Assembly (NCBI RefSeq): GCF_024700885.2
Contig: NZ_CP117016.1
Length of the DNA: 64,000 bases
Source of the DNA: Escherichia coli
GTDB taxonomy: Bacteria; Pseudomonadota; Gammaproteobacteria; Enterobacterales; Enterobacteriaceae
Reading direction: 5' to 3' (one strand)
Positions 41,024 to 59,727 of this stretch are shown piece after piece (the stretch's first letter is position 1; every line of letters starts with the position of its first letter). A program made the translations under genes and the position numbers. The notes below the pieces were generated by a model that saw only the letters and a program-made list of their open reading frames with translations, made no database searches and was not told where the DNA came from.

Positions 41024-43455
41024 TCCAGCCCCATCGCCCGCAAATGCTCGGCCACTTTCTCGCTCAACGCCTCAACGGAGGCTTCAAGCGCTAGCAACGG
41101 TTCAGCATAACGCTCTTCCAGCTCCTTTACGCGCGACGCCAGTTGCTGGGTAATACGCTCAATCTCCGCCTTGATCCCTGCCTGCAACGTTGCCAGCCAC
41201 TTATCCTGCACTACCAGCGTTTTAATCGCTGCTTCATCCAGCGTGGGATAATGTTTAAACACCGCCCGATCCAGCGCTTCTTGTGCGGCTTTCAGCGCTT
41301 TTTTCGCACTGGCTTCGGCCTTAATTAGCGCCAGGCAGCGGTTCAGCACTGCCAGCTCATCTGGGCCGGCAGTGGTTTTCTTTAACTGTGCTAGACGGGC
41401 ATTCACCAGCTTTTGCGTCACCTTATCTTTATCGTTCTTCGCCTCGGCCAGCAGATCCTCTTCACCTGCCTGCTCCTCGATGAATTCCACTAGCTGACGA
41501 CTGGCTTCTTCACTGCGCTCCTGCGCGCGGTTCAGCGCATCCAGCAGTTCCGGGAAACAGCGAATTTCCACCAGCGAACGGGGCAGCACATCGGCCTTGT
41601 AGCGCCGTTTGGTAAACTCGAAATCGTGCGTTTCTTTCCAGATGTTTTTGCCATCTTTGCCTTTCACCGGCTGAAGCTCGCGGATTTGCGCGGCGGCTTG
41701 CCAGCCATCCTGCATAATCGCATACACATCGTCTTGCATGACATCAGTCCAGTAATCCATCAGGATCTGGTACACGCTGTATTTGTTCAGCAACTCACTG
41801 TTGGCGTACTGCGCCAATAGCATTTCGCTGATATCGTGGATTAGCGCTTTGGGTTTATCACCTTTGCGAATCTCTTCCAGACTTGCCTCTTTCACCCACG
41901 CTTTAAACGGTAGCAGGCTGCGGGTGGCAAAATCCTTAAACTCCTGATGCGCCAGAATGGTCGGTTTCACCTGTTGCGCGTTCACCTGCGCCCGACAGTA
42001 ACCGGGACGGTCGTCAGCAAACAGCACGTTGCGCAGGGCAGGGAATACCCGCCAGTAATCTTGCAAAGCATCCACATCGCGTGCCGGAATACCGCCCTGT
42101 AAGTGCGCGGTCAGATCGTGTAAATCTTCCGGCTCGCCGCTCTCGATATAGCGAGGAATATTCAGGTTGTAATCATTTCCGGCGATCTCGCTGGAGGGCA
42201 CCATCCGGCTGTAGCCAGGTACCGTTCGCTGATGGTTGAACACGTCCACAATGCGGTGAATATCTCGGCTACGCAGGCGGTTCTTGTTGCCATCTTTGAT
42301 AAAGCCCCGGCTGGCGTCGATCATAAAAATGCCTTTGCGGCTGTGGGCGTGCTCTTTATCAATCACAATGATGCACGCCGGGATGCCGGTGCCGTAAAAC
42401 AGGTTGGCTGGCAAACCAATAACGCCTTTGATATAGCCCTGCTTGATTAGATTTTCACGGATATTCGCTTCGGCGTTACCGCGAAACAGTACGCCGTGGG
42501 GCAGGATCACCGCGCCTTTGCCGGTACTTTTCAGGCTTTTAATGATATGCAACAAAAAAGCATAATCGCCGTTTTTTTCCGGCGGAATACCCCAGCCGAA
42601 GCGTTCAAACGGATCTTTTTTCGGCGTCAGCCCGTTGGTCCAGTTTTTATTGGAAAAAGGCGGGTTCGCCACGGCAAAATCGAAGGCTTTCAGTTTGCCG
42701 TTCGCCTCTTTCCACTGCGGATCGCTCAGCGTATTGCCCTGCCAGATTTTCGCGGTGGCATTGTTATGCAGAATCATGTTCATCCGCGCCAGCGCACTGG
42801 TAGCGTTATCCATCTCCTGGCCGAAAATCGACAGTCCGCGCCGGGCTTCATCATTCACTTTCAACAGCAGCGAACCAGAGCCACAGGTTGGGTCATAAAC
42901 CGTTGCATCTTGCGGAGTATCGGGAGTAATACCAATCACCTTCGCCAGAATACGTGACACCTCCGCTGGAGTGTAAAACTGCCCTTTACTCTTACCGGAT
43001 TCGGTTGCGAAGTGACGCATCAGATATTCATAGGCATCGCCCAGCAGATCGTCGCCTTCGGCCCGGTTGCTGGAGAGATTTAACCCTTCAAAGATACCGA
43101 CAAGCTTGCTCAGGCGGTCAATCATTTCCTTGCCTTTGCCGAGCTTATCTTCGTCGTTAAAGTCGGCTTCGTCGATGACGCCCTTCAGGCCGTTCTCTTC
43201 CGCCAGCTTGTGGATGATTTTGTTGATTTTGTCGCCGATCTCTTTGTCATTTTTCAGCGCAACCATATCGTCAAAGCTGGCTCCTTTGGGTATCACGATC
43301 ATCCCGTAAGGATCGCCTTTATACTTATCGGAAACGTACTTCATAAACAGCAGGGTCAGTACATAGTCTTTGTACTGGCTGGCGTCCATCCCGCCACGCA
43401 GTTCGTCGCAGCTTGCCCACAGGGAAGAATAGAGTTCGGTTTTTTTGATAGCCAT
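41017..43455 (-). CDS. hsdM: Type I restriction-modification DNA methyltransferase (HsdM) with long C-terminal coiled-coil-rich extension
   Basis: 812-aa; N6-adenine MTase motifs YDPTCGSGSLL (motif I) and VANPPFS (motif IV); C-terminal ~300 aa Ala/Glu/Lys/Leu-rich. Confidence 0.8.
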   Translation of the reverse strand: MAIKKTELYSSLWASCDELRGGMDASQYKDYVLTLLFMKYVSDKYKGDPYGMIVIPKGASFDDMVALKNDKEIGDKINKIIHKLAEENGLKGVIDEADFNDEDKLGKGKEMIDRLSKLVGIFEGLNLSSNRAEGDDLLGDAYEYLMRHFATESGKSKGQFYTPAEVSRILAKVIGITPDTPQDATVYDPTCGSGSLLLKVNDEARRGLSIFGQEMDNATSALARMNMILHNNATAKIWQGNTLSDPQWKEANGKLKAFDFAVANPPFSNKNWTNGLTPKKDPFERFGWGIPPEKNGDYAFLLHIIKSLKSTGKGAVILPHGVLFRGNAEANIRENLIKQGYIKGVIGLPANLFYGTGIPACIIVIDKEHAHSRKGIFMIDASRGFIKDGNKNRLRSRDIHRIVDVFNHQRTVPGYSRMVPSSEIAGNDYNLNIPRYIESGEPEDLHDLTAHLQGGIPARDVDALQDYWRVFPALRNVLFADDRPGYCRAQVNAQQVKPTILAHQEFKDFATRSLLPFKAWVKEASLEEIRKGDKPKALIHDISEMLLAQYANSELLNKYSVYQILMDYWTDVMQDDVYAIMQDGWQAAAQIRELQPVKGKDGKNIWKETHDFEFTKRRYKADVLPRSLVEIRCFPELLDALNRAQERSEEASRQLVEFIEEQAGEEDLLAEAKNDKDKVTQKLVNARLAQLKKTTAGPDELAVLNRCLALIKAEASAKKALKAAQEALDRAVFKHYPTLDEAAIKTLVVQDKWLATLQAGIKAEIERITQQLASRVKELEERYAEPLLALEASVEALSEKVAEHLRAMGLEW

Positions 43456-43494
43456 TAAATATCTCGTTTTGCGCGATAATGTGCCGTAAGTCGG

Positions 43495-43800
43495 TTACAG
43501 CAGATCGGTATTCAGACCGGCGGCCTTTAACCGATGGGTTAAGTTACGCATTTTGCTGAATTCGGTACCGAGGCTCTGGTTCAGACCAGTGCCTTCGCAA
43601 AAGGCTTTTGCCGTAATGTGTTCCAGTTTGTCGGCATATTTAATCATTTGCAGGTGCAGCTCGACGGTGTACTGGTTACGAGGCGCACTGGAAAGTGCCT
43701 GCCGGATATGGCGATAAATCTCGTCTTCATTCATATTCATGGCAACCACTGGTATAATAGATAAGTTAGCTAAATTAGCTAAATGTGGTATCAGGTTCAA
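43495..43800 (-). CDS. Small hypothetical protein directly upstream of hsdM (possible regulator)
   Basis: 81-101 codon ORF, same strand, 40 bp upstream of hsdM; tandem TTAGCTAAA repeats just upstream of it. Confidence 0.35.
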   Translation of the reverse strand: MNLIPHLANLANLSIIPVVAMNMNEDEIYRHIRQALSSAPRNQYTVELHLQMIKYADKLEHITAKAFCEGTGLNQSLGTEFSKMRNLTHRLKAAGLNTDLL

Positions 43801-44732
43801 GAACTACAGTGGGAGTCGGATTTGACTGCGCGATTTATGCACGTAAATGCCTTGTGGCGGATTAATGGCCGCAGTATCTTCTCCTTCCGCGCCTGCAAAA
43901 TCAGGCGTCGGGATTAGCTTCCTGAAAACCGTTACAGGAGACTTCTCTATGACTACAATCCTTGTCCCTGACTGCGATTTACTCGATCTATTGTTCGTTT
44001 CCTTATAATGTCACTATGGATTTCACCGCCTTGGTCGACAACTGCGCCCACTTCGTCGAATCCCTGATAGAAACCGAGGATCCCGCGCTGTGGCTTACCC
44101 TCTGCGGGCGACATTGTACTGCTGCAACCCACGCCGACCTCATCCCGCCGCATTTTACCGAAAGCCTGCTCAGTGATACTCTCCCCACCATGCCAGATCA
44201 GGTTATTTCTGAACCTGATTCTTGTGCGAATATTGCCTCGTGCGGGCTGTGCATCATCGCCGCTCTTTGATAAGAGGCGTCAAAGGTAAGGGGCGTAGCG
44301 TTATTAGTTTGGGCTATACACTTGCGCTACAACTCTTCAAATAGCTATATATCAACAATATTTAGCCATAAACCGTCTACTTCCGTCTCAATTATACTCA
44401 AATTAAGGCATGCGGCATCTTTGTGACACATTTGTTTTTTTGATACAGGTTAGAGTTGACCTGCTCTCCGTTGATTAACTCACATTGTTGTTAACCACGT
44501 CTACTTTTAGCACGACACTGATGCGTTAACTGAGCGAATGGTCTGCTTTGAGCGAGGAACGGACATTACTAACAGCATTCTGTGTGAATCACCAGGGAGC
44601 AGGTCAGCGCCACTACTCTATATAATCGCTAACGATGACAAGTATAATTATATAAGTCTTTGCCCTTAGCTTTTGGATAAAATTGTTGAAGTTTCACGAA
44701 AATAATGATAAACAAAAACAGTAGCAATAATT

Positions 44733-45677
44733 ATGGATTTAATTATGGAATGGAGATTTTTAGGTTCTCTATCAGAGGCCAGGAAATCTGGCTGTAGCGG
44801 AGTTTATCTTATTGTCCATAAAGGACTTTTCAGTCGTGTGGTTTACGTTGGGGTAAGTTGTAATGTAGGTAGAAGGATAACCGAACATTACGACGGTTAT
44901 CTTAGAGGAAATCGAACAATTTACGACGCTGGTCACGACGAAGACGTTTATCGCTTCATGTCAGCTTATAAAATTCATAACCACACAAAATACTATCAAG
45001 CCTTGGCGAATGATTATAAGATATGGGCATCTACCACAATGTATTCTGATTTGCCGAAAAACATGCTAGCAAAAAGCCAAACCTTTGATACTGATTGGCA
45101 GAGCATTGCATTAGAAAAATATATTCCTCAACTGGTAGTATGGGCCCTTCCAATGGCAAAGTACTGTTATTCAAATGCAAGCAGGATTGAAAGTGTAATC
45201 CAATCAAAGCTCATTAAATCTTTTGATTTGAGAGGTTTTTTTAATATAAAGCAATTAAGCATATTGGGTAAAATTGAATATCCCTATATGGAAAAGGTCA
45301 AAGTTTTCATTATTAACACACCTGATTTAGACCCGGCATCCCAGCTTATTTTTAGCAATCTATATAACAAAAAAACTGATAACAACTTCTGTAAAGAGTT
45401 CCGTTCACAATTTAAAAGCGAGATTTTTCAGAGGGAAAGTGAAACTCAGAGAAAGCGAACTATCAGGGAGCATAAGGTATCTCTTTATGAAAATTATGGC
45501 AAGCCTTGGACTTTAAAGGAAATGGAAAAACTTAGAGTCATGCTTGTCGATTTTGATTTGTCCCCGATAGAAATATCTGAGTATCTAGGAAGAGAGCCGC
45601 GCTCTATATCTAAAAAAATAAGCGAAAATGATAAAGTTACTAATTATAAATGGCGAGAGAGCGTCGGCTGGTTGTGA
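44733..45677 (+). CDS. Hypothetical protein with N-terminal GIY-YIG-like nuclease motif and C-terminal HTH-like region
   Basis: 314-aa AT-rich ORF; GVY-x12-YVG-x5-GRRITEH pattern near N-terminus; C-terminal …WTLKEMEKLRVMLVDFDLSPIEISEYLGREPRSISKKI… resembles a sigma-r4/LuxR-type HTH. Confidence 0.5.
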   Translation: MDLIMEWRFLGSLSEARKSGCSGVYLIVHKGLFSRVVYVGVSCNVGRRITEHYDGYLRGNRTIYDAGHDEDVYRFMSAYKIHNHTKYYQALANDYKIWASTTMYSDLPKNMLAKSQTFDTDWQSIALEKYIPQLVVWALPMAKYCYSNASRIESVIQSKLIKSFDLRGFFNIKQLSILGKIEYPYMEKVKVFIINTPDLDPASQLIFSNLYNKKTDNNFCKEFRSQFKSEIFQRESETQRKRTIREHKVSLYENYGKPWTLKEMEKLRVMLVDFDLSPIEISEYLGREPRSISKKISENDKVTNYKWRESVGWL

Positions 45678-45892
45678 CGTTACGTTTTGATTGAAATAAC
45701 CCCCATTTTGCAAAGTCCGCTCTTGGCACAGAGCGGACTGTCAGATGAGGTTTAGTTCTGTACTAATGAGCCGATACAAATTAGCTGCATATACCTGCAT
45801 TCCAAATAATTTTAGGCAGATATTATCTCCGTGAGTCCCCCGCCACTTTTCCGGTGCGCGGGGTTTTGTCTTTTTTCACCGGGAATACATGT

Positions 45893-46765
45893 ATGAATCC
45901 GTCTGATGCCATTGAGGCAATTGAAAAACCGCTCTCCTCCCTGCCTTACTCACTTTCCCGTCACATCCAGGAACATCTGCGCAAACTCACCAGTCACGAA
46001 CCCGTGATTGGCATTATGGGTAAAAGCGGGGCCGGTAAATCCTCACTCTGTAATGCACTGTTTCAGGGGGAGGTCACCCCGGTCAGTGATGTTCACGCCG
46101 GCACCCGGGAAGTGCGGCGCTTCCGTCTGAGTGGCCACGGTCACAGCATGATTATCACTGACCTGCCCGGGGTGGGCGAGAGCCGGGACAGGGATGCAGA
46201 GTATGAAGCCCTGTACCGTGACATTCTGCCTGAACTTGACCTGGTACTGTGGCTGATTAAAGCCGATGACCGTGCCCTGTCTGTGGATGAGTATTTCTGG
46301 CGACACATACTGCACCGGGGACATCAGCAGGTGCTGTTTGTGGTGACGCAGGCCGACAAAACGGAGCCCTGCCATGAATGGGATATGGCCGGCATTCAGC
46401 CTTCTCCCGCACAGGCACAGAACATTCGGGAGAAAACGGAGGCGGTATTCCGTCTGTTCCGGCCCGTACATCCGGTTGTTGCCGTATCGGCCCGCACCGG
46501 CTGGGAACTGGATACGCTGGTCAGTGCGCTAATGACAGCACTTCCCGACCATGCCGCCAGTCCCCTGATGACCCGCCTGCAGGACGAGCTGCGCACGGAA
46601 TCTGTCCGCGCTCAGGCCCGTGAACAGTTTACCGGTGCGGTGGACCGGATATTTGACACGGCGGAGAGCGTCTGTGTTGCCTCTGTTGCCCGTACGGTTC
46701 TGCGTGCCGTCCGTGACACGGTGGTCTCTGTTGCCCGCGCTGTATGGAACTGGATTTTCTTCTGA
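45893..46765 (+). CDS. YeeP/YkfA/YfjP-family GTPase (CP4-like island protein)
   Basis: P-loop GKSGAGKSSL and G-domain motifs; immediately upstream of Ag43 as in CP4-44-like modules. Confidence 0.65.
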   Translation: MNPSDAIEAIEKPLSSLPYSLSRHIQEHLRKLTSHEPVIGIMGKSGAGKSSLCNALFQGEVTPVSDVHAGTREVRRFRLSGHGHSMIITDLPGVGESRDRDAEYEALYRDILPELDLVLWLIKADDRALSVDEYFWRHILHRGHQQVLFVVTQADKTEPCHEWDMAGIQPSPAQAQNIREKTEAVFRLFRPVHPVVAVSARTGWELDTLVSALMTALPDHAASPLMTRLQDELRTESVRAQAREQFTGAVDRIFDTAESVCVASVARTVLRAVRDTVVSVARAVWNWIFF

Positions 46766-47137
46766 ACACTCTGCCAGGGGAAATGCCTGATTACATTGCG
46801 TTAACCAACTGAAAACATGATACAAACACTCCATCCCCCTCCTGTTTCTCTTGCGTGACTGCCCTGCTGTTAATAGAATAAAACGATCGATAAAACAGGT
46901 ATCGATCGTTACCATCGATCGTTTATAGTGGTTAATGGTCTGCGAAAAGGCAGCTGAATCTCTTCATCATGCAGAACGGAATTGCACACAACGGACTGAT
47001 ACTTCTCTGGCGGATGAGAGAGGGGAAGCATTTATGTCCGGGAAAAACCACTTTATCTGACCATGCTGTTTTGTACCTGCCGGTATCCACATTTGTGGGT
47101 ACCGGCTTTTTTATTCACCCTCTGTAAGGAAAAGCTG

Positions 47138-49984
47138 ATGAAACGACATCTGAACACCAGCTACAGGCTGGTATGGAATCACATTACGGGCACCCTGGTG
47201 GTGGCTTCCGAACTGGCGCGCTCACGGGGAAAACGCACCGGTGTGGCGATTGCGCTGTCTCTTGCTGCTGTCACATCAGTTCCGGCACTGGCTGCTGACA
47301 CGGTTGTACAGGCGGGAGAAACCGTGAGCGGCGGAACACTGACAAATCATGACAACCAGATTGTTCTCGGTACGGCCAACGGAATGACCATCAGTACCGG
47401 TCTGGAGTATGGGCCGGATAACGAGGCCAATACCGGCGGGCAATGGATACAAAATGGCGGTATCGCCAACAACACTACTGTCACCGGTGGTGGTCTTCAG
47501 AGAGTGAATGCCGGAGGAAGCGTTTCAGACACGGTTATCAGTGCCGGAGGCGGACAGAGCCTTCAGGGGCAGGCAGTGAATACCACTCTGAACGGCGGTG
47601 AGCAGTGGGTACATGAAGGCGGGATTGCAACGGGTACCGTCATTAATGAGAAGGGCTGGCAGGCCGTCAAATCCGGCGCAATGGCAACCGACACGGTTGT
47701 GAATACCGGCGCGGAAGGGGGACCAGATGCAGAAAATGGTGATACCGGGCAGTTTGTTCGCGGAAATGCCGTACGTACCACCATCAATAAAAATGGTCGT
47801 CAGATTGTGGCTGTTGAAGGAACAGCAAATACCACTGTGGTTTATGCCGGCGGCGACCAGACGGTACACGGGCATGCGCTGGATACCACACTGAATGGCG
47901 GTTACCAGTATGTGCACAACGGAGGCACAGCCTCTGACACGGTTGTAAACAGTGACGGCTGGCAGATTGTCAAGGAAGGTGGTCTGGCGGATTTCACCAC
48001 CGTTAACCAGAAAGGCAAACTGCAGGTGAACGCCGGTGGTACAGCCACGAATGTCACCCTGAAACAGGGTGGAGCACTGGTCACCAGTACTGCGGCAACG
48101 GTTCTTGGCAGCAACCGTCTGGGCAATTTCACGGTGGAAAACGGTAAGGCTGACGGCGTTGTTCTGGAGTCCGGCGGTCGCCTGGATGTACTGGAAGGCC
48201 ATTCAGCGCAGAAAACACGGGTGGATGACGGCGGAACCCTGGCAGTGTCTGCCGGTGGTAAGGCAACAGATGTCACCATGACATCCGGTAGTGCCCTGAT
48301 TGCAGACAGTGGTGCCACTGTTGAGGGGACCAATGCCAGCGGTAAGTTCAGTATTGATGGCACATCCGGTCAGGCCAGCGGACTGCTGCTGGAAAATGGC
48401 GGCAGCTTTACGGTTAATGCCGGGGGACAGGCCAGCAACACCACTGTCGGACATCGTGGAACACTGATGCTGGCTGCCGGGGGAAGTCTGAGTGGCAGAA
48501 CACAGCTCAGTAAAGGCGCCAGCATGGTACTGAATGGTGATGTGGTCAGTACCGGCGATATTGTTAACGCAGGGGAGATTTACTTTGACAATCAGACAAC
48601 ACCGGATGCCGTACTGAGCCGTGCTGTTGCAAAAGGCGACTCCCCGGTAACGTTCCATAAACTGACAACCAGTAACCTCACCGGTCAGGGTGGCACCATC
48701 AATATGCGTGTTCGCCTTGATGGCAGCAATGCCTCTGACCAGCTGGTGATTAATGGTGGTCAGGCAACCGGCAAAACCTGGCTTGCGTTTACAAATGTCG
48801 GAAACAGCAACCTCGGGGTGGCAACCTCCGGACAGGGTATCCGGGTTGTGGATGCACAGAATGGCGCCACCACAGAAGAAGGTGCGTTTGCCCTGAGTCG
48901 CCCGCTTCAGGCCGGCGCCTTTAACTACACCCTGAACCGTGACAGCGATGAAGACTGGTACCTGCGCAGTGAAAATGCTTATCGTGCTGAAGTCCCCCTG
49001 TATACATCCATGCTGACACAGGCAATGGACTATGACCGGATTCTGGCAGGCTCCCGCAGCCATCAGACCGGTGTAAACGGTGAAAATAACAGCGTCCGTC
49101 TCAGCATTCAGGGCGGTCATCTCGGTCACGATAACAACGGCGGTATTGCCCGTGGAGCCACGCCGGAAAGCAGCGGCAGCTATGGCTTCGTCCGTCTGGA
49201 GGGTGACCTGCTCAGAACAGAGGTTGCCGGTATGTCTCTGACGACAGGGGTGTATGGTGCTGCAGGCCATTCTTCCGTTGATGTTAAGGATGATGACGGT
49301 TCCCGCGCCGGCACGGTCCGGGATGATGCCGGCAGCCTGGGCGGATACCTGAATCTGACACACACGTCCTCCGGCCTGTGGGCTGACATTGTGGCACAGG
49401 GAACCCGCCACAGCATGAAAGCGTCATCGGACAATAACGACTTCCGCGCCCGGGGCTGGGGCTGGCTGGGCTCACTGGAAACCGGTCTGCCCTTCAGTAT
49501 CACTGACAACCTGATGCTGGAGCCACAACTGCAGTACACCTGGCAGGGGCTCTCCCTGGATGACGGCCAGGATAACGCCGGTTATGTGAAGTTCGGGCAT
49601 GGCAGTACACAACATGTGCGTGCCGGCTTCCGTCTGGGCAGCCACAACGATATGACCTTTGGCGAAGGCACCTCATCCCGTGACACTCTGCGCGACAGTG
49701 CAAAACACCGTGTGAGTGAACTGCCGGTGAACTGGTGGGTACAGCCTTCTGTTATCCGCACTTTCAGCTCCCGGGGTGACATGAGCATGGGTACAGCCGC
49801 AGCCGGCAGTAACATGACGTTCTCACCCTCACAGAATGGCACATCACTGGACCTGCAGGCCGGACTGGAAGCCCGTGTCCGGGAAAATATCACCCTGGGC
49901 GTTCAGGCCGGTTATGCCCACAGCATCAACGGCAGCAGCGCTGAAGGTTATAGCAGTCAGGCCACGCTGAATGTGACCTTCTGA
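47138..49984 (+). CDS. flu: Antigen 43-family self-associating autotransporter adhesin
   Basis: About 949-aa; signal peptide MKRHLNTSYRLVWNHITGTLVVASELAR…, repetitive passenger, C-terminal beta-barrel ending …QATLNVTF. Confidence 0.8.
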   Translation: MKRHLNTSYRLVWNHITGTLVVASELARSRGKRTGVAIALSLAAVTSVPALAADTVVQAGETVSGGTLTNHDNQIVLGTANGMTISTGLEYGPDNEANTGGQWIQNGGIANNTTVTGGGLQRVNAGGSVSDTVISAGGGQSLQGQAVNTTLNGGEQWVHEGGIATGTVINEKGWQAVKSGAMATDTVVNTGAEGGPDAENGDTGQFVRGNAVRTTINKNGRQIVAVEGTANTTVVYAGGDQTVHGHALDTTLNGGYQYVHNGGTASDTVVNSDGWQIVKEGGLADFTTVNQKGKLQVNAGGTATNVTLKQGGALVTSTAATVLGSNRLGNFTVENGKADGVVLESGGRLDVLEGHSAQKTRVDDGGTLAVSAGGKATDVTMTSGSALIADSGATVEGTNASGKFSIDGTSGQASGLLLENGGSFTVNAGGQASNTTVGHRGTLMLAAGGSLSGRTQLSKGASMVLNGDVVSTGDIVNAGEIYFDNQTTPDAVLSRAVAKGDSPVTFHKLTTSNLTGQGGTINMRVRLDGSNASDQLVINGGQATGKTWLAFTNVGNSNLGVATSGQGIRVVDAQNGATTEEGAFALSRPLQAGAFNYTLNRDSDEDWYLRSENAYRAEVPLYTSMLTQAMDYDRILAGSRSHQTGVNGENNSVRLSIQGGHLGHDNNGGIARGATPESSGSYGFVRLEGDLLRTEVAGMSLTTGVYGAAGHSSVDVKDDDGSRAGTVRDDAGSLGGYLNLTHTSSGLWADIVAQGTRHSMKASSDNNDFRARGWGWLGSLETGLPFSITDNLMLEPQLQYTWQGLSLDDGQDNAGYVKFGHGSTQHVRAGFRLGSHNDMTFGEGTSSRDTLRDSAKHRVSELPVNWWVQPSVIRTFSSRGDMSMGTAAAGSNMTFSPSQNGTSLDLQAGLEARVRENITLGVQAGYAHSINGSSAEGYSSQATLNVTF

Positions 49985-50104
49985 TAATTCTGCATTGCCT
50001 CTCTGTGGTCCCGGTCATCATGACCGGGACCCGGACGGGGGAAAACGTTTCAGTGCCACATTCACTGGCATTCACAATAACATGATATTCATCACGGAGT
50101 GACT

Positions 50105-52621
50105 ATGTTACAGATAGTCGGCGCGCTGATTCTGCTGATCGCAGGATTTGCCATTCTTCGCCTTTTGTTCAGAGCATTAACCAGCACAGCGTCTGCGCTG
50201 GCAGGGTTCGTATTGCTGTGTCTGTTCGGCCCGGCTTTACTGGCTGGCTATATCACTGAACGCATAACCCGGTTATTCCATATTCGCTGGCTGGCAGGCG
50301 TATTTCTGACGATTGCCGGAATGATTATCAGCTTCATGTGGGGACTTGATGGTAAACATATCGCACTGGAGGCTCATACTTTTGACTCTGTAAAATTTAT
50401 TCTGACCACCGCTCTCGCCGCTGGTCTGCTGGCTCTTCCCGTGCAGATAAGAACCATTCAGCAGAACGGGCTCACACCTGAAGATATCAGCAAGGAAATT
50501 AACGGGTATTACTGCTGTTTTTATACTGCTTTTTTCCTTATGGCGTGTTCTGCATACGCACCATTGATCGCATTGCAGTTCGATATTTCACCCTCACTGA
50601 TGTGGTGGGGCGGGTTGTTGTACTGGCTGGCTGCATTAGTGGCGCTGCTATGGGCGGCCAGCCAGATCCAGGCGCTGAAAAGACTGACCAGTGCCATCCG
50701 CCAGACACTGGAAGAACAACCGGTGCTCAACAGTAAATCGTGGCTGAGCAGTTTGCAAAACGATTACAGCCTTCCTGAAACGCTGACGGAGCGCATCTGG
50801 CTGACACTCATTTCACAACGGATTTCCCGGGGAGAACTGAGGGAATTTGAACTGGCAGACGGAAACTGGCTACTGGACAATGCCTGGTATGAAAGAAACA
50901 TGGCGGGTTTCAACGAAAAGCTGAGAGAGAGCCTGTCATTTACCCCTGATGAACTGAAAACCCTCTTCCGGAACCGCCTGAATTTATCACCGGAAGCGAA
51001 TGACGATTTTCTCGATCGTTGCCTGGACGGCGGTGACTGGTACCCCTTTTCAGAAGGCCGCCGTTTTGTATCATTCCACCACGTGGATGAGCTTCGTATC
51101 TGTGCCTCCTGCGGGCTGACAGAAGTACATCATGCCCCGGAAAATCATAAGCCGGATCCGGAATGGTACTGCTCCTCTCTTTGTCGCGAAACAGAAACAC
51201 TGTGTCAGGACATTTATGAACGTTCTTACACCGGTTTTATTTCCGATGCAACGGCGAATGGTCTGATTCTCATGAAACTGCCGGAAACCTGGAGTACAAA
51301 TGAGAAAATGTTTGCTTCCGGAGGGCAGGGACATGGGTTTGCCGCTGAACGGGGAAACCATATTGTCGACAGAGTCCGTCTGAAAAACGCACGGATCCTC
51401 GGTGATAATAATGCCAGAAATGGAGCAGACAGACTGGTCAGCGGAACAGAAATCCAGACGAAATATTGTTCAACTGCAGCCCGTAGCGTCGGTGCGGCAT
51501 TCGACGGACAAAACGGACAGTATCGTTACATGGGAAATCATGGTCCCATGCAACTGGAAGTCCCCCGTGATCAGTATGCCGGCGCTGTGGAAACCATGAA
51601 GAATAAGATCCGCGAAGGTAAAGTACCCGGTGTAACCGATCCCGCAGAAGCGTCCCGGCTGATTCGTCGGGGACATCTGACTTATACCCAGGCCCGTAAT
51701 ATCACCCGGTTCGGGACCATCGAATCGGTCACTTATGATATTGCCGAGGGGTCGGTTGTCAGTCTGGCGGCCGGAGGGATCAGTTTTGCCCTGACGGCAT
51801 CGGTCTTCTGGCTCAGCACCGGCGATCGCGATGCTGCCCTGCAGACAGCTGCTGTCCAGGCAGGAAAAACCTTCACCCGCACACTGGCTGTCTACGTCAC
51901 AACCCAGCAACTTCACCGGCTCAGTGTTGTTCAGGGTATGCTGAAGCATATTGATTTTTCGACGGCCAGCCCGACTGTCCGGCAGGCGCTTCAGAAGGGG
52001 ACCGGTGCAGGAAATATCAGTGCCCTGAACAAAGTGATGAAGGGTACGCTGGTGACATCTCTGGCACTGGTAGCTGTCACAACCGGCCCTGACATGATCA
52101 AAATGTTGCGGGGACGGATCTCCGGTGCGCAGTTCATCAGGAATCTTGCCGTGGCATCTTCCGGTGTGGCAGGTGGTGCTGTCGGGTCAGTGGCGGGCGG
52201 GATATTGTTCAGTCCACTGGGACCATTTGGTGCACTGACAGGGCGTGTGGTTGGCGGTGTTCTGGGGGGAATGATTGCCTCCGCTGTATCAGGAAAAATT
52301 GCCGGAGCGCTGGTTGAAGAAGATCGCGTCAAAATTCTGGCAATGATTCAGGAGCAGGTGACATGGCTTGCCGGCAGTTTCCTGCTGACCGGACATGAGA
52401 TTGAAAATCTGAACGAGAATCTGGCCCGTGTTATCGATCAGAATGCTCTGGAGATCATTTTCGCCGCCGGTATACAACAACGGGCCGCGACCAATATGTT
52501 AATCAAACCACTGGTGGTCAGTATCATCAGGCAACGCCCCGTCATGGAATATGATGCATCCCATCTCGGCAATATGGTTAACCGACTGGAAGAAGCATTA
52601 CCCCCGGAGTTACCGGCATAA
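50105..52621 (+). CDS. Large inner-membrane protein of unknown function (YeeR-like position downstream of Ag43)
   Basis: 838-aa with N-terminal TM helices and Gly-rich C-terminal hydrophobic segment; GGAG SD upstream. Confidence 0.55.
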   Translation: MLQIVGALILLIAGFAILRLLFRALTSTASALAGFVLLCLFGPALLAGYITERITRLFHIRWLAGVFLTIAGMIISFMWGLDGKHIALEAHTFDSVKFILTTALAAGLLALPVQIRTIQQNGLTPEDISKEINGYYCCFYTAFFLMACSAYAPLIALQFDISPSLMWWGGLLYWLAALVALLWAASQIQALKRLTSAIRQTLEEQPVLNSKSWLSSLQNDYSLPETLTERIWLTLISQRISRGELREFELADGNWLLDNAWYERNMAGFNEKLRESLSFTPDELKTLFRNRLNLSPEANDDFLDRCLDGGDWYPFSEGRRFVSFHHVDELRICASCGLTEVHHAPENHKPDPEWYCSSLCRETETLCQDIYERSYTGFISDATANGLILMKLPETWSTNEKMFASGGQGHGFAAERGNHIVDRVRLKNARILGDNNARNGADRLVSGTEIQTKYCSTAARSVGAAFDGQNGQYRYMGNHGPMQLEVPRDQYAGAVETMKNKIREGKVPGVTDPAEASRLIRRGHLTYTQARNITRFGTIESVTYDIAEGSVVSLAAGGISFALTASVFWLSTGDRDAALQTAAVQAGKTFTRTLAVYVTTQQLHRLSVVQGMLKHIDFSTASPTVRQALQKGTGAGNISALNKVMKGTLVTSLALVAVTTGPDMIKMLRGRISGAQFIRNLAVASSGVAGGAVGSVAGGILFSPLGPFGALTGRVVGGVLGGMIASAVSGKIAGALVEEDRVKILAMIQEQVTWLAGSFLLTGHEIENLNENLARVIDQNALEIIFAAGIQQRAATNMLIKPLVVSIIRQRPVMEYDASHLGNMVNRLEEALPPELPA

Positions 52622-52696
52622 CGGCTATTCTGCGCCTTTTACGCTTTATCACCTGATTTGTCAGTGTCATCGTCATGACTCAGAGAGGTAAATACC

Positions 52697-53152
52697 ATGA
52701 TTCACCTGTTCAAAACCTGCATGATTACCGCCTTCATTCTGGGGTTAACGTGGTCTGCCCCACTCCGGGCACAGGATCAACGTTACATCAGTATACGCAA
52801 TACAGATACGATATGGCTCCCGGGAAATATTTGTGCCTACCAGTTCCGGCTGGATAATGGCGGAAACGATGAAGGATTTGGCCCCCTCACCATCACTCTG
52901 CAACTCAAAGACAAATATGGTCAGACGCTGGTGACCAGAAAAATGGAAACGGAAGCCTTTGGTGACAGTAATGCCACGCGAACCACAGACGCATTTATGG
53001 AAACGGAGTGCGTGGAAAATGTCGCCACAACCGAAATCATTAAAGCAACTGAAGAAAGTAACGGCCATCGTGTCAGTCTGCCGTTATCGGTTTTTGATCC
53101 CCAGGACTACCATCCACTGCTGATTACCGTTTCCGGAAAAAATGTTAACTGA
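52697..53152 (+). CDS. Hypothetical secreted protein
   Basis: 151-aa with signal peptide MIHLFKTCMITAFILGLTWSAPLRA. Confidence 0.45.
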   Translation: MIHLFKTCMITAFILGLTWSAPLRAQDQRYISIRNTDTIWLPGNICAYQFRLDNGGNDEGFGPLTITLQLKDKYGQTLVTRKMETEAFGDSNATRTTDAFMETECVENVATTEIIKATEESNGHRVSLPLSVFDPQDYHPLLITVSGKNVN

Positions 53153-53561
53153 TCCCTGAAGTCAGTTTCATGCTTCAGCCTCTGCCACAACGTATGGCAG
53201 AGGCTATTTATCAGGAGAAACCAGATATGCCGGGTTACACACAGAGTATGTCCTGGCTGAAGGATCTTTCTCATACGGGCAGACGGTGGCTGTCACAACA
53301 GCTTACCTTAATGTGCTTATTGAAGATGACCAGGTGCGCACTTCCGGCTGGTTATCCGCAACGCGGAAGGTCAGCGACGCTGGCGCTGCCGGAATACTGA
53401 ACCCTGTGCCGGAAAGCAGCTTAATGCGTGGCTCGCCAGTGAAGGGCTTCTCAGACAATAAACGTCATTGATTTCGTCCATCAGGCCGCGTCTTCTCCGG
53501 GAGACGCGGCTTTTTTCATTTATTACACCAGTAAATCTTAACCACCGATAAGGAGCAAAGT

Positions 53562-54383
53562 ATGCGATTAGCCAGTCGTTTTGGTTATGCTGCAAACCAG
53601 ATACGCCGTGACCGTCCACTGACACATGAAGAGCTGATGCACCATGTGCCGGGGATTTTCGGGGAAGATAAACACACGTCCCGAAGCCAGAACTATACGT
53701 ACATCCCCACCATCACCGTGCTGGAAAGTCTGCAGCGGGAAGGCTTCCAGCCATTCTTCGCCTGCCAGACCCGTGTGCGCGACCCGGGCCGTCGGGGATA
53801 CACAAAACACATGCTGCGTCTGCGGCGGGCCGGAGAGATAAACGGAGAACATGTCCCTGAAATTATTCTGCTCAACTCTCATGACGGTACCTCCAGCTAC
53901 CAGATGCTGCCGGGTTACTTCAGGTTCGTCTGCCAGAACGGGTGCGTCTGTGGTCAGTCTCTGGGGGAAGTGCGTGTTCCGCACCGGGGAAATGTAGTGG
54001 AGAAAGTTATCGAAGGGGCTTACGAGGTGGTGGGGGTTTTTGACCGGATAGAGGAGAAGCGTGATGCCATGCAGTCGCTGGTCCTGCCGCCACCGGCACG
54101 CCAGGCGCTGGCACAGGCGGCACTGACTTACCGTTATGGTGACGAACATCAGCCCGTCACCACCGCCGACATTCTGACGCCACGACGCCGGGAGGATTAC
54201 GGAAAGGACCTGTGGAGTGCTTATCAGACCATCCAGGAGAATATGCTGAAAGGGGGGATTTCCGGTCGCAGTGCCAGAGGAAAACGTATCCACACCCGTG
54301 CCATTCACAGCATCGACACCGACATTAAGCTCAACCGCGCATTGTGGGTGATGGCTGAAACGCTGCTGGAGAGTATGCGCTGA
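53562..54383 (+). CDS. DUF932-family protein (YfjQ/YafZ-like)
   Basis: 273-aa; size and position typical of CP4-like island modules. Confidence 0.5.
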   Translation: MRLASRFGYAANQIRRDRPLTHEELMHHVPGIFGEDKHTSRSQNYTYIPTITVLESLQREGFQPFFACQTRVRDPGRRGYTKHMLRLRRAGEINGEHVPEIILLNSHDGTSSYQMLPGYFRFVCQNGCVCGQSLGEVRVPHRGNVVEKVIEGAYEVVGVFDRIEEKRDAMQSLVLPPPARQALAQAALTYRYGDEHQPVTTADILTPRRREDYGKDLWSAYQTIQENMLKGGISGRSARGKRIHTRAIHSIDTDIKLNRALWVMAETLLESMR

Positions 54384-54474
54384 TGCCGTTTCCCTGAAAG
54401 CGCAGTTCTGACTCACGTCTGTCCCTTCCCCCGGGATTTCTTCCATTCATTTACTTTTTATAAGGAATAATCTC

Positions 54475-54960
54475 ATGACAACCGTCTTGCATAATTCCAC
54501 CACTCCTTCTGTTTCCGTAACCGCTGCATCAGGGAATGACCAGCCTCAGCTGGTTGCCACCATAGTCCCTGATGAACAGCGCATCAGCTTCTGGCCGCAG
54601 CACTTTGGCCTCATTCCACAGTGGGTGGCCCTGGAGCCCCGTGTCTTCGGCTGGATGGACCGTCTGTGTGAAGACTACTGCGGTGGTATCTGGAATCTGT
54701 ACACCCTGAACAACGGCGGGGCATTTATGGCACCCGAACCGGATGACGATGATGACGAAACATGGGTACTGTTCAATGCCATGAACGGTAACCGCGCTGA
54801 AATGAGCCCGGAAGCCGCCGGCATTGCTGCCTGTCTGATGACGTACAGCCATCATGCCTGTCGTACGGAGTGTTATGCCATGACGGTCCATTATTACCGG
54901 TTGCGGGATTACGCCCTGCAGCATCCGGAATGCAGCGCCATTATGCGCATCATCGACTGA
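54475..54960 (+). CDS. Antirestriction protein, KlcA/ArdB-like (YfjX/YafX class)
   Basis: 161-aa, acidic stretch PEPDDDDDETW; position upstream of RadC-like gene. Confidence 0.55.
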   Translation: MTTVLHNSTTPSVSVTAASGNDQPQLVATIVPDEQRISFWPQHFGLIPQWVALEPRVFGWMDRLCEDYCGGIWNLYTLNNGGAFMAPEPDDDDDETWVLFNAMNGNRAEMSPEAAGIAACLMTYSHHACRTECYAMTVHYYRLRDYALQHPECSAIMRIID

Positions 54961-54975
54961 ATGGAGAGAAGCACA

Positions 54976-55452
54976 ATGCAACAGCTTTCCTTTCTGCCCG
55001 GAGAGATGACGCCCGGCGAGCGCAGTCTCATTCTGCGGGCCCTGAAAACTCTGGACCGCCATCTTCATGAACCCGGCGTGGCCTTCACCTCCACCCGTGC
55101 GGCACGGGAATGGCTGATTCTGAACATGGCGGGACTGGAGCGTGAAGAATTCCGGGTGCTGTATCTGAATAACCAGAATCAACTGATTGCCGGTGAAACC
55201 CTCTTCACCGGCACCATCAACCGCACGGAAGTCCATCCCCGGGAAGTGATTAAACGCGCCCTGTACCACAATGCCGCTGCCGTGGTGCTGGCGCACAATC
55301 ACCCGTCCGGTGAAGTCACACCCAGCAAGGCAGACCGCCTTATCACGGAACGTCTGGTACAGGCACTGGGCCTGGTGGATATCCGGGTGCCGGACCATCT
55401 GATAGTCGGTGGCAACCAGGTTTTCTCCTTTGCCGAACATGGTCTGCTTTAA
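54976..55452 (+). CDS. RadC-like JAB-domain protein (YeeS/YkfG class)
   Basis: JAMM motif region …VLAHNHPSGEVTPSKADRLIT…. Confidence 0.65.
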   Translation: MQQLSFLPGEMTPGERSLILRALKTLDRHLHEPGVAFTSTRAAREWLILNMAGLEREEFRVLYLNNQNQLIAGETLFTGTINRTEVHPREVIKRALYHNAAAVVLAHNHPSGEVTPSKADRLITERLVQALGLVDIRVPDHLIVGGNQVFSFAEHGLL

Positions 55453-55514
55453 CCCGTCACAACCACATCACACCTGTTTTCACTTTTATCTTCTGTCTTC
55501 AGAGGTATCACATC

Positions 55515-55736
55515 ATGAGAATCATCACCCGTGGTGAAGCCATGCGTATTCACCAACAGCATCCTGCATCCCGTCTTTTTCCGTTCTGTACCGGTAAGTA
55601 TCGCTGGCACGGCAGTGCTGAAGCGTATACTGGTCGTGAAGTGCAGGATATTCCCGGCGTTCTTGCCGTGTTTGCAGAACGCCGTAAGGACAGTTTTGGC
55701 CCGTATGTCCGGCTGATGAGTGTCACCCTGAACTGA
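55515..55736 (+). CDS. DUF987-family small protein (YeeT-like)
   Basis: 73-aa ORF in canonical position before the CbeA/CbtA pair. Confidence 0.5.
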   Translation: MRIITRGEAMRIHQQHPASRLFPFCTGKYRWHGSAEAYTGREVQDIPGVLAVFAERRKDSFGPYVRLMSVTLN

Positions 55737-55898
55737 TGTTCCGTCACCCGGGAAACGAGTACGACCAGATGACCTCAGACGCCGCTGTGGATGAGGCCAT
55801 TCTCATCAATGCATACATCTTCACCGAAACCGGTCAGCGCGCCGGCTGACCTGTCATCGTTAAACCATTCTTAACCACTTTTCAGAGAGGATTTTATC

Positions 55899-56273
55899 GT
55901 GTCAGACAAACTCTCCGGGATAACTCATCCCGATGACAATCACGACCGCCCCTGGTGGGGGCTTCCCTGCACAGTGAGGCCCTGTTTTGGCGCTCGTCTG
56001 GTGCAAGAGGGTAACCGCCTGCATTACCTTGCCGACCGCGCCGGTATCAGAGGCCGCTTCAGCGACGCAGATGCATACCATCTGGACCAGGCCTTTCCGC
56101 TGCTGATGAAACAACTGGAACTCATGCTCACCAGCGGTGAACTGAATCCCCGATATCAGCATACCGTCACGCTGTATGCAAAAGGGCTGACCTGCGAAGC
56201 CGACACCCTCGGCTCCTGTGGTTACGTTTATCTGGCTGTTTATCCGACACCAGCACCCGCAACCACCTCATAA
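55899..56273 (+). CDS. cbeA: Type IV antitoxin, CbeA/YeeU family
   Basis: 124-aa; immediately upstream of CbtA-like toxin gene. Confidence 0.6.
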
Positions 56274-56319
56274 CCCCGAAGCTCTCACCTTTAGCACTAC
56301 CAGTTACAGAGAACTTAAG

Positions 56320-56694
56320 ATGAAAACATTATCCGACACACATGTACGGGAGGTATCTCGCTGCCCGTCTCCCGTCACCATCTGGCAGACACTGCTCATC
56401 CGACTGCTGGACCAGCATTATGGCCTCACACTGAATGACACACCGTTTGCCGATGAACGTGTGATTGAGCAGCATATTGAGGCAGGCATTTCACTGTGTG
56501 ATGCAGTTAATTTTCTCGTGGAAAAATACGCGCTGGTGCGTACCGACCAGCCGGGATTCAGCACCTGTCCCCGCTCTCAGTTAATAAACAGTATTGATAT
56601 CCTCCGGGCTCGCCGGGCGACCGGCCTGATGACCCGCGACAATTACAGAACGGTAAATAACATTACCCTGGGTAAGTATCCGGAGGCGAAATGA
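56320..56694 (+). CDS. cbtA: Type IV toxin, CbtA/YeeV family (cytoskeleton-binding)
   Basis: 124-aa [43 protein letters not shown]…. Confidence 0.65.
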
Positions 56695-57182
56695 TGAAAC
56701 TGGCCCTGACACTGGAAGCCGACAGCGTTAACGTACAGGCACTGAACATGGGGCGCATTGTCGTTGACGTCGATGGTATTGAGCTCGCTGAACTGATTAA
56801 CATGGTCTGCGATAACGGCTACTCCCTTCGTGTTGTTGATGAATCTGACCAGACCTCAGCAGAATGCACGCCACCATTTGCTACCCTTACCGGCATACGC
56901 TGCAGTACCGCACATATCACGGAAACGGACAACGCCTGGTTGTACTCGCTGTCACACCAGACCAGTGACTTCGGTGAATCAGAATGGATTCATTTTACAG
57001 GTAGCGGATATCTGTTACGTACCGATGCGTGGTCATACCCGGTTCTGCGGCTTAAACGCCTGGGGCTGTCAAAAACGTTCCGTCGTCTGGTCGTCACACT
57101 CATCCGGCGTTATGGCGTCAGTCTCATTCATCTGGATGCCAGCGCTGAATGCCTGCCGGGTTTACCCACTTTCGACTGGTAA
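56691..57182 (+). CDS. YeeW-like protein
   Basis: 163-aa ORF overlapping cbtA stop, canonical position in CP4-like modules. Confidence 0.5.
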
Positions 57183-57193
57183 CCAGGAACAAC

Positions 57194-57391
57194 ATGAAAT
57201 CATTAACCACGGAAACAGCGCTGGATATTCTGATTGCGTGGCTGCAGGACAATATCGACTGCGGATCGGGAATTATCTTTGACAACGATGAGGATAAAAC
57301 GGATTCAGCAGCACTGTTGCCCTGTATCGAACAGGCCCGGGAGGATGTCCGTACCCTGCGTCATCTGCAGCTTCTGCACCAGAACCGGTGA
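57194..57391 (+). CDS. Small hypothetical protein
   Basis: 65-aa ORF between yeeW-like and DUF4942-like genes. Confidence 0.35.
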   Translation: MKSLTTETALDILIAWLQDNIDCGSGIIFDNDEDKTDSAALLPCIEQAREDVRTLRHLQLLHQNR

Positions 57392-57475
57392 AGCTCACTC
57401 ACCAGACTTCATTCCTCTGACGCCAGCCTGCACAGGGCTGGCGTTTTCATTTATCTGCAAAAAGGAATATCGATT

Positions 57476-58318
57476 ATGTCAGATATCACAATCTCCCGTC
57501 CGGAAGTGGTCAACGGGCATACGGACGTTATCTGCTCAACCAGCATTCGCCACATTCTGGCTGTACGAAAGAGTACACTGTTGCAAATCGACACACTTAT
57601 CCGACAACTGGCTGAAATCTCGGTGCTGACGGAAAGCATCGGAGGTAAAACTGCCCCGGACTGGGCCATGAAACAGGATTTTCGCTGCGGCTGCTGGCTG
57701 ATGGAGAAACCCGAAACAGCAATGAAAGCCATTACCCGGAATCTTGATCGCGAAATCTGGCGTGACCTGATGCAACGTTCCGGGATGCTGTCATTAATGG
57801 ATACGCAGGCCCGTGATACATGGTACCGGTCACTGGAGTACGATAATTTTCCGGAAATCAGCGAAGCGAACATTCTGAGCACATTTGAACAACTGCACCA
57901 GAATAAGGATGAGGTGTTTGAGCGAGGGGTGATCAACGTCTTCAGAGGGCTGAACTGGAATTACAAAACCAATTGCCCCTGTAAATTTGGCAGTAAAATT
58001 ATCGTCAACAATCTGGTGAGATGGGACCGGTGGGGATTTCATCTTATCACCGGACAACAGGCTGACCGACTCGCCGATCTGGAAAGAATGTTGCACCTGT
58101 TCAGCGGTAAACCAATCCCCGACAACCGGGGAAACATCACCCTTCGTCTGGATGATCACATTCAGTCTGTTCAGGGTAAAGAGAGCTATGAAGATGAGAT
58201 GTTCAGCATCAGATACTTTAAGAAGGGCTCCGCGCATATCACGTTCAGAAAACCAGAACTGGTTGACAGACTGAATGATATTATCGCAAAACACTATCCT
58301 GATATGCTGGCAGTATAG
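57476..58318 (+). CDS. DUF4942-family protein (terminal gene of CP4-like modules)
   Basis: 280-aa ORF, last island gene before serX. Confidence 0.5.
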   Translation: MSDITISRPEVVNGHTDVICSTSIRHILAVRKSTLLQIDTLIRQLAEISVLTESIGGKTAPDWAMKQDFRCGCWLMEKPETAMKAITRNLDREIWRDLMQRSGMLSLMDTQARDTWYRSLEYDNFPEISEANILSTFEQLHQNKDEVFERGVINVFRGLNWNYKTNCPCKFGSKIIVNNLVRWDRWGFHLITGQQADRLADLERMLHLFSGKPIPDNRGNITLRLDDHIQSVQGKESYEDEMFSIRYFKKGSAHITFRKPELVDRLNDIIAKHYPDMLAV

Positions 58319-58467
58319 CTTTGCCAGTATGCTCAAAGATCGGAAATTGTCCGATAAGATATAATCGCGGGGCATATAAACCGGTTTCAGATGGCATACC
58401 CGATGGCATACTGTCTGGAAGGAAAAATAAAAAAGCGCATGTTAAACAATAACATGCGCTTATAATC

Positions 58468-58555
58468 TGGCGGTGAGGGGGGGATTCGAACCCCCGATAC
58501 GTTGCCGTATACACACTTTCCAGGCGTGCTCCTTCAGCCACTCGGACACCTCACC
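58468..58555 (-). tRNA. serX: tRNA-Ser (anticodon GGA)
   Basis: 88-nt; reverse complement reads GGTGAGGTGTCCGAGTGGCTGAAGGAGCACGCCTGGAAAGTGTG…GGTTCGAATCCCCCCCTCACCGCCA with long variable arm; adjacent to ghrA as at the serX locus. Confidence 0.85.
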
Positions 58556-58749
58556 AAATTGTTGTTCCTGTCTTGCTGGAACGGGCGCTAATTTAGGGAA
58601 ATCATGACCTGAGGTCAACAAACTTTTTTAAAAAATCGCGCGTTTATTCAAACTTCAATCAATATGCAGTTTTAATAAGCGAAATCTGCTTTTTTTGCCA
58701 CCGACCACGGATTTGTTATGCTGGTGGCTTTTGTAGATCATAACGATAA

Positions 58750-59727
<978 letters not shown>

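Follow-up and report, generated by a model that had tools for sequence, protein, structure and literature searches.

A probable backbone operon of CP4-type islands, encoding ArdB and the CbeA/CbtA pair, next to the RRDM defence island at serX of Escherichia coli

What keeps a broad type I antirestriction gene from disarming a type I restriction-modification (RM) system that is carried on the same element? This question is raised by a genomic island of E. coli, analysed here within a window of 64,000 nucleotides (the whole stretch of DNA under study), in which an operon combining type I RM genes with DarTG shares the island with a gene of the KlcA/ArdB family. The initial annotation had remarked that offensive and defensive functions of mobile elements are packaged together on this island, and had suggested that this is relevant to the island's tolerance of the restriction system it carries. 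Our analysis retains the packaging and leads to another view of the tolerance. Very probably, the antirestriction gene and its four companions are the conserved backbone operon of CP4-type islands integrated at tRNA genes, while the RM-DarTG block (RRDM) is cargo, whose tolerance relies on its own methylase and on its regulator RptR.

The genes at stake form a compact unit of five open reading frames, which begins with the start codon of ardB at 54475 and ends with the stop codon of cbtA at 56694. The KlcA/ArdB-like, RadC-like and CbeA/CbtA genes had been placed between these two positions from the letters alone; the open reading frame listing and Pfam both locate them there, all on the + strand, and the family assignments are confirmed by the Pfam models, as each of the five proteins matches its own family far above the curated cut-off (Table 1). 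The unit also contains a DUF987 gene, absent from the initial annotation. The order ArdB-RadC-DUF987-CbeA-CbtA runs in one direction with tight spacing (gaps of 15, 62, 162 and 46 bp), and the RadC-like reading frame is open from 54961, where an alternative ATG is found. The PGAP annotation of identical DNA (NZ_CP117013.1, E. coli MLI114 chromosome) names the five genes alike. In an NCBIfam search, the RadC-like protein is the only one of the five to be given a name, and none of the five matches any of the 5,027 defence models of PADLOC; a known defence system was consequently dropped as a label for ArdB, RadC, CbeA and CbtA. An Rfam scan of 43000-59000 detects the tRNA, an IS102/isrC motif upstream of Ag43 and a sub-threshold isrK/c4 near rptR, and no RNA family within 54475-56694. 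A scan for promoter-like sites returns fewer sites than shuffled sequences do, with no convincing promoter for the five-gene operon.

Table 1. Positions of the features discussed in the text, numbered from the first nucleotide of the 64-kb window.
Feature	Position	Strand	Evidence
M48 peptidase	34120-34836	-	Pfam, PADLOC, PGAP
HsdR	34836-37931	-	Pfam, PADLOC, PGAP
DarG, WP_000634203.1	37950-39017	-	Pfam, PADLOC, PGAP
DarT	39014-39670	-	Pfam, PADLOC, PGAP
HsdS	39683-41017	-	Pfam, PADLOC, PGAP
HsdM	41017-43455	-	Pfam, PADLOC, PGAP
RptR-like HTH	43495-43734	-	PGAP, sequence
TAGCTA operator repeats, upstream of rptR	43767-43781		sequence
Terminator-like hairpin, 13 pairs and T run, strong, just upstream of DUF932 gene	53483-53512	+	
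DUF932 protein, YfjQ paralogue	53562-54383	+	PF06067 177.9 bits; 74.2% identical to YfjQ
ArdB/KlcA-family antirestriction protein, 161 aa, WP_000214307.1	54475-54960	+	PF03230 127.4 bits (cut-off 25)
RadC-like JAB/JAMM domain protein, 158 aa, YeeS/LfgB paralogue	54976-55452	+	PF04002 152 bits (cut-off 22.1)
DUF987 protein, 73 aa, YeeT/YpjJ paralogue	55515-55736	+	PF06174 135 bits
CbeA/YeeU-family type IV antitoxin, 124 aa	55899-56273	+	PF06154 183.8 bits
CbtA/YeeV-family toxin, 124 aa	56320-56694	+	PF06755 202.8 bits
DUF5983, conserved downstream backbone	56691-57182	+	Pfam, PGAP; 4-nt overlap with cbtA stop
DUF957, conserved downstream backbone	57194-57391	+	Pfam, PGAP
Terminator-like hairpin, 11 pairs, after DUF957	57419-57445	+	
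DUF4942, conserved downstream backbone	57476-58318	+	Pfam, PGAP
tRNA-Ser(GGA) serX, integration site	58468-58555	-	ARAGORN, Rfam

The match of ArdB to PF03230 spans the full model of 92 positions. Its C-terminal part, of about 136 residues, is about 98% identical to the solved structure of ArdB of CFT073 (PAI II, ORF14; PDB 2WJ9, E 2.5e-98), likewise encoded on a pathogenicity island, whereas the first 25 or so N-terminal residues differ between the two proteins. A weaker match is obtained with the KlcA structure 2KMG (E 7.8e-21), and the protein is a paralogue of YafX and of YfjX/LfgA, with 69.5% identity to K-12 YfjX. ArdB of CFT073, YafX and YfjX relieve restriction by type IA, IB, IC and ID systems 10- to 9,250-fold in vivo, the alleviation by ArdB of CFT073 being 54- to 1,174-fold (PMC2836571). 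Proteins of this family block restriction and barely touch modification, with a mostly negligible anti-modification effect (PMC2836571). The three proteins are not DNA mimics, and the action of ArdB is independent of the recognition site and leaves BREX and type III systems unaffected; an effect in vitro has been reported for one Bacillus system. By analogy with near-identical homologues, the ArdB of the island would relieve type I restriction and let modification proceed, through a mechanism other than DNA mimicry which is as yet poorly defined, and would benefit the element whenever its DNA enters a restricting host.

The RadC-like protein belongs to the TIGR00608 subfamily (149 bits for a cut-off of 133.85), with 99.3% identity to K-12 YeeS and 77.9% to YfjY/LfgB, and matches the structure of a RadC homologue (PDB 2QLC, E 6e-26). 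Its JAMM metal-binding motif HxH...D is intact (HNHPSGEVTPSKAD at residues 107-120). The protein is likely a zinc-dependent hydrolase. It does not reach the cut-off of the housekeeping RadC/YicR equivalog NF000642 (160.3 bits for 180) and covers model positions 88-211 only, which indicates a short mobile-element form rather than the housekeeping RadC. Its biochemical role is disputed: protease activity against the antitoxin MqsA has been reported for the RadC-like paralogue LfgB (PMC10846083), and another proposal is a function in nucleic-acid processing.

The toxin-antitoxin pair has the expected organisation, with cbeA directly upstream of cbtA on the same strand, a spacer of 46 bp and both family models matched. 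CbeA, whose Pfam family bears the name 'type IV, cytoskeleton bundling-enhancing factor', matches the structures 2INW (E 5e-78) and 2H28, which is YeeU (E 4.5e-74); the same search for CbtA gives no match among solved structures. CbtA of K-12, like its paralogues YpjF and YkfI, binds FtsZ and MreB independently. As the name of its family suggests, CbeA would neutralise the toxin through the targets and not by binding it. Residue F65 of CbtA, which contacts FtsZ and is required for FtsZ binding, is conserved in the island protein. Residue 15 is a cysteine, as it naturally is in YpjF and YkfI. As the R15C substitution in K-12 CbtA disrupts MreB binding, we considered Cys15 as the sign of a CbtA defective in MreB binding, and rejected this reading since YpjF and YkfI, with their natural Cys15, stay active. 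By analogy with the K-12 proteins, which are 88-92% identical, CbtA would stop cell division and elongation through FtsZ and MreB binding and CbeA would counteract it, and the pair could stabilise the island as an addiction module.

These five genes lie in a mosaic island at the tRNA-Ser gene serX, in which both the five-gene unit and the RM-DarTG operon are within non-core DNA. The island adjoins the 3' end of serX, with ghrA-ycdX-ycdY-ycdZ-csgGFED to the right (PGAP); its left part carries IS remnants, an Afa-type fimbrial operon, iro genes and sugar-utilisation genes. It runs past the left edge of the 64-kb window, within which no direct repeat of the tRNA 3' end, as would mark the other border of the island, is detected. 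Each copy of the five-gene unit that was sampled has the DUF932 gene upstream of ardB, and the order DUF5983-DUF957-DUF4942 that follows cbtA recurs in the sampled copies. The two hairpins listed in Table 1 may bound a transcription unit extending from DUF932 to DUF957, which is suggestive only, the total of terminator-like sites being no higher than in shuffled sequences.

When compared with K-12, the five-gene unit is a full-length paralogue of both yeeS-yeeT-cbeA-cbtA (88-99% protein identity) and lfgABCDE. [quoted passage not shown] The nearest relative in sequence is yeeS-yeeT-cbeA-cbtA-yeeW of CP4-44, likewise a cryptic prophage, with identities of 99.3% for YeeS, 97.3% for YeeT (the DUF987 protein), 91.5% for CbeA and 87.9% for CbtA. 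The similarity extends upstream, where yeeP-isrC-flu-yeeR of CP4-44 is matched by a GTPase gene, the IS102/isrC RNA motif, Ag43 and YeeR. In K-12, CP4-44 has lost its ArdB and DUF932 genes and has a yeeP pseudogene along with shorter yeeR and yeeW, whereas the island at serX keeps ArdB, DUF932, a full-length YeeR, DUF5983, DUF957 and DUF4942, all lost or truncated there.

The restriction genes are located upstream, in the opposite orientation. The RM-DarTG block, a long-HsdM system, is the published RRDM defence island (PMC12255303), with which it shares its seven open reading frames, their order (rptR-hsdM-hsdS-darT-darG-hsdR-M48), the TAGCTA promoter repeats and the very DarG accession, WP_000634203.1; the HsdM, HsdS, HsdR and DarT alleles differ in that they bear other accessions. 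RRDM has been functionally characterised, with RptR as its own regulator, and when cloned alone on pBR322 into DH5alpha it confers protection (PMC12255303). From the start codon of hsdM to that of ardB we count 11,019 bp, in keeping with the distance of about 11 kb given in the initial annotation, and Pfam, PADLOC and PGAP together bear out that anti-defence and defence genes are packaged on one island.

The two neighbours are of very unequal abundance. Of 5,426 complete E. coli genomes, 4,975 have matches to the five-gene DNA, for a total of 14,113 places (median 3, maximum 15 per genome); all but 7 of these places are chromosomal. The wider 5.2-kb region has a match in 5,425 of the 5,426 genomes (median of 4 places, and six in MLI114). 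The RM-DarTG block is present in 271 of the 5,426 genomes, at about 283 chromosomal places, and ArdB loci are about fifty times more numerous than RRDM loci. In a small sample of contexts (eight of RRDM and three other copies of the five-gene unit), RRDM lies 10-13 kb upstream of the ArdB-RadC-DUF987-CbeA-CbtA unit in seven of its eight contexts, at serX or serW, the eighth being a rearranged remnant. The three other copies, sampled so as to be spread, all have the GTPase-Ag43-DUF932 backbone with other cargo, and none has a type I RM system upstream. RRDM would fill a variable slot upstream of a GTPase-Ag43-YeeR-DUF932-ArdB backbone.

The linkage between the two was assessed by comparing the segment 43400-58600, by blastn, with four islands at serW in which the same RM-DarTG block is present (L004, L006, L007 and L009). 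From rptR to the stop codon of the DUF987 gene (55736), identity to the four islands is 98.5-99.4%; from 55737 (cbeA side) to the tRNA, it falls abruptly to about 90%. The serW islands also have, between DUF987 and the antitoxin gene, a segment of about 550 bp with an extra 'hypothetical protein' reading frame, which is missing here. There is thus a sharp recombination breakpoint at 55736/55737, located at the DUF987 stop codon. ArdB-RadC-DUF987 are co-inherited with RRDM, as a segment of 12.3 kb shared across serX and serW islands, and the toxin-antitoxin pair is not; homologous recombination has joined to them a toxin-antitoxin end from another paralogous lineage. With two halves of different histories, the five-gene unit is itself a mosaic.

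Does ArdB then bear on the island's tolerance of its own restriction system, as first suggested? Our results do not support it. The five-gene unit is generic whereas the RM block occurs in only 271 genomes, the latter has its own HsdM/HsdS methylase and an RptR with TAGCTA repeats, and the toxin-antitoxin half has a history different from that of the RM block. Moreover, as the ArdB family blocks restriction and barely affects modification, a constitutively active ArdB would disable the very defence that the island carries, and would not explain tolerance. A stronger version of the same idea holds that ArdB is functionally coupled to the type I system of the island, for example by transiently checking HsdR in an unmethylated host, and that the packaging is adaptive. 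An inhibitor of restriction that spares modification is indeed what an establishment helper needs, ArdB and RRDM are inherited together on a 12.3-kb segment that is near-identical between two tRNA sites, and they keep their spacing in seven of eight sampled RRDM contexts. Yet only about 2% of the five-gene copies can adjoin RRDM (about 283 against 14,113 places), the three other sampled copies lack an upstream type I system, and RRDM, equipped with RptR and its methylase, protects DH5alpha when cloned alone on pBR322. K-12 strains carry yafX and yfjX and still restrict phage normally. This normal restriction fits the vector-alone baselines (PMC2836571) and suggests that resident ArdB proteins are inactive at their native expression, which also argues against coupling. 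Finally, restriction alleviation when type I systems enter a new host has already been described (introduction of PMC12255303); methylase, RptR and alleviation being established routes to self-tolerance, a coupling to ArdB is unneeded. We therefore regard such a coupling as very unlikely, and nothing shows a functional tie between the five-gene unit and the restriction system 11 kb away.

Two other readings concern the operon itself. It could be a domesticated remnant serving host physiology, for example through an LfgB-like protease acting on MqsA in stress, with antirestriction and toxin functions being vestigial. [quoted passage not shown] The RadC-like protein is nevertheless just 77.9% identical to LfgB, contaminating proteases in the LfgB preparations were not strictly excluded by the authors (PMC10846083), and the copy number, with a median of 3 per genome and islands as the invariable location, suits selection at the level of the element better than a single host function. 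We find domestication unlikely, and it would in any case be compatible with a backbone operon. Alternatively, CbtA/CbeA could be an abortive-infection module directed against phage, so that the region would combine defence and anti-defence (ArdB) beside RRDM. Many toxin-antitoxin systems do defend against phage, as does DarTG on the same island (PMC12255303), but the five proteins are without match among the PADLOC models, and the papers that we consulted report no anti-phage activity of CbtA/CbeA; this reading is scarcely credible.

The backbone-operon explanation, which we favour, relies on components and an arrangement that are all already described, namely a textbook backbone operon and a published neighbour island. 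The operon could aid the element both in surviving entry, through ArdB, and in resisting loss, through CbtA/CbeA, and the self-tolerance of RRDM would depend on its methylase and on the repressor RptR, and not on ArdB. As to what keeps ArdB from disarming the co-resident type I system, differential regulation is the likely answer.

These results give the island a modest interest for the biology of CP4-type elements. It provides an intact reference copy of a cluster that has decayed in CP4-44 of K-12, and it shows that RRDM moves between serX and serW islands in company with ArdB-RadC-DUF987, whereas recombination exchanges the toxin-antitoxin end. We give very little credence to the possibility that ArdB acts as an establishment factor, checking HsdR while HsdM/HsdS methylate a naive chromosome; if this were true, the co-inheritance of ArdB and RRDM over about 12 kb would be selected and not incidental.

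The block running from the RRDM defence island to the tRNA gene is common to two distinct tRNA-Ser sites, serW adjoining infA (the compared E. coli loci L005, L006, L007 and L009) and serX adjoining ghrA (the window and loci L001 and L004). This distribution implies either that integration has taken place at both sites or that the block has been transferred by recombination from one island to another.

A sharp recombination junction lies at the DUF987 stop codon of the five-gene unit (window 55736/55737). To its left, the window and the serW islands share 98.5-99.4% identity, as against only ~90% to its right. The serW islands moreover differ from the window by an additional segment of ~550 bp, located in the interval from DUF987 to the antitoxin gene and holding a 'hypothetical protein' ORF.

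Features of the island backbone and of the RRDM region in the window
Feature	Position	Strand	Remark
HsdM	41017-43455	-	812 aa
RptR-like HTH gene	43495-43734	-	within 43495-43800
TAGCTA repeats	about 43758-43781	-	two perfect and one degenerate; beside the RptR-like gene
isrK	within 43876-43950	+	sub-threshold Rfam match, 42 bits vs 50
c4-a1b1	within 43876-43950	+	sub-threshold Rfam match, 41 bits vs 46.7
IS102/isrC small-RNA motif	46883-47119	+	72 bits vs gathering score 46
YeeR-family protein	50099-52621	+	840 aa
DUF905 gene	53227-53461	+	between IrmA and DUF932; annotated as frameshifted in MLI114

In the backbone upstream of the five-gene unit, the IS102/isrC motif directly precedes the Ag43 gene, as it does in CP4-44 of K-12. 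The YeeR-family protein, which has neither a Pfam nor an NCBIfam match, is longer than its K-12 counterpart (510 aa). The DUF905 gene is also annotated as frameshifted in several further strains, and is intact elsewhere, for example at loci L006 and L013.

On the RRDM side, the set of TAGCTA repeats agrees with the published RptR operator of this defence island. Both the isrK and the c4-a1b1 match lie in the region upstream of rptR, on the strand opposite to that gene. Pfam domains on HsdM are confined to residues 10-441, the C-terminal ~370 residues having no Pfam assignment, so that the protein is unusually long for a methylase subunit of a type I system.

Other defence systems are found at two of the compared loci. 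In strain AHB22 (L014, 26971-34992), a type II restriction-modification system of the Alw26I/Eco31I/Esp3I family and McrBC are separated by 4-12 kb from a copy of the five-gene unit, a further instance of restriction and antirestriction genes side by side. In the O157:H7 strain F7508 (L005, 1-6510), a type I Zorya system (zorA-D) and a CDI toxin locus accompany RRDM on its island, so that multiple defence systems are stacked upstream of the shared backbone.
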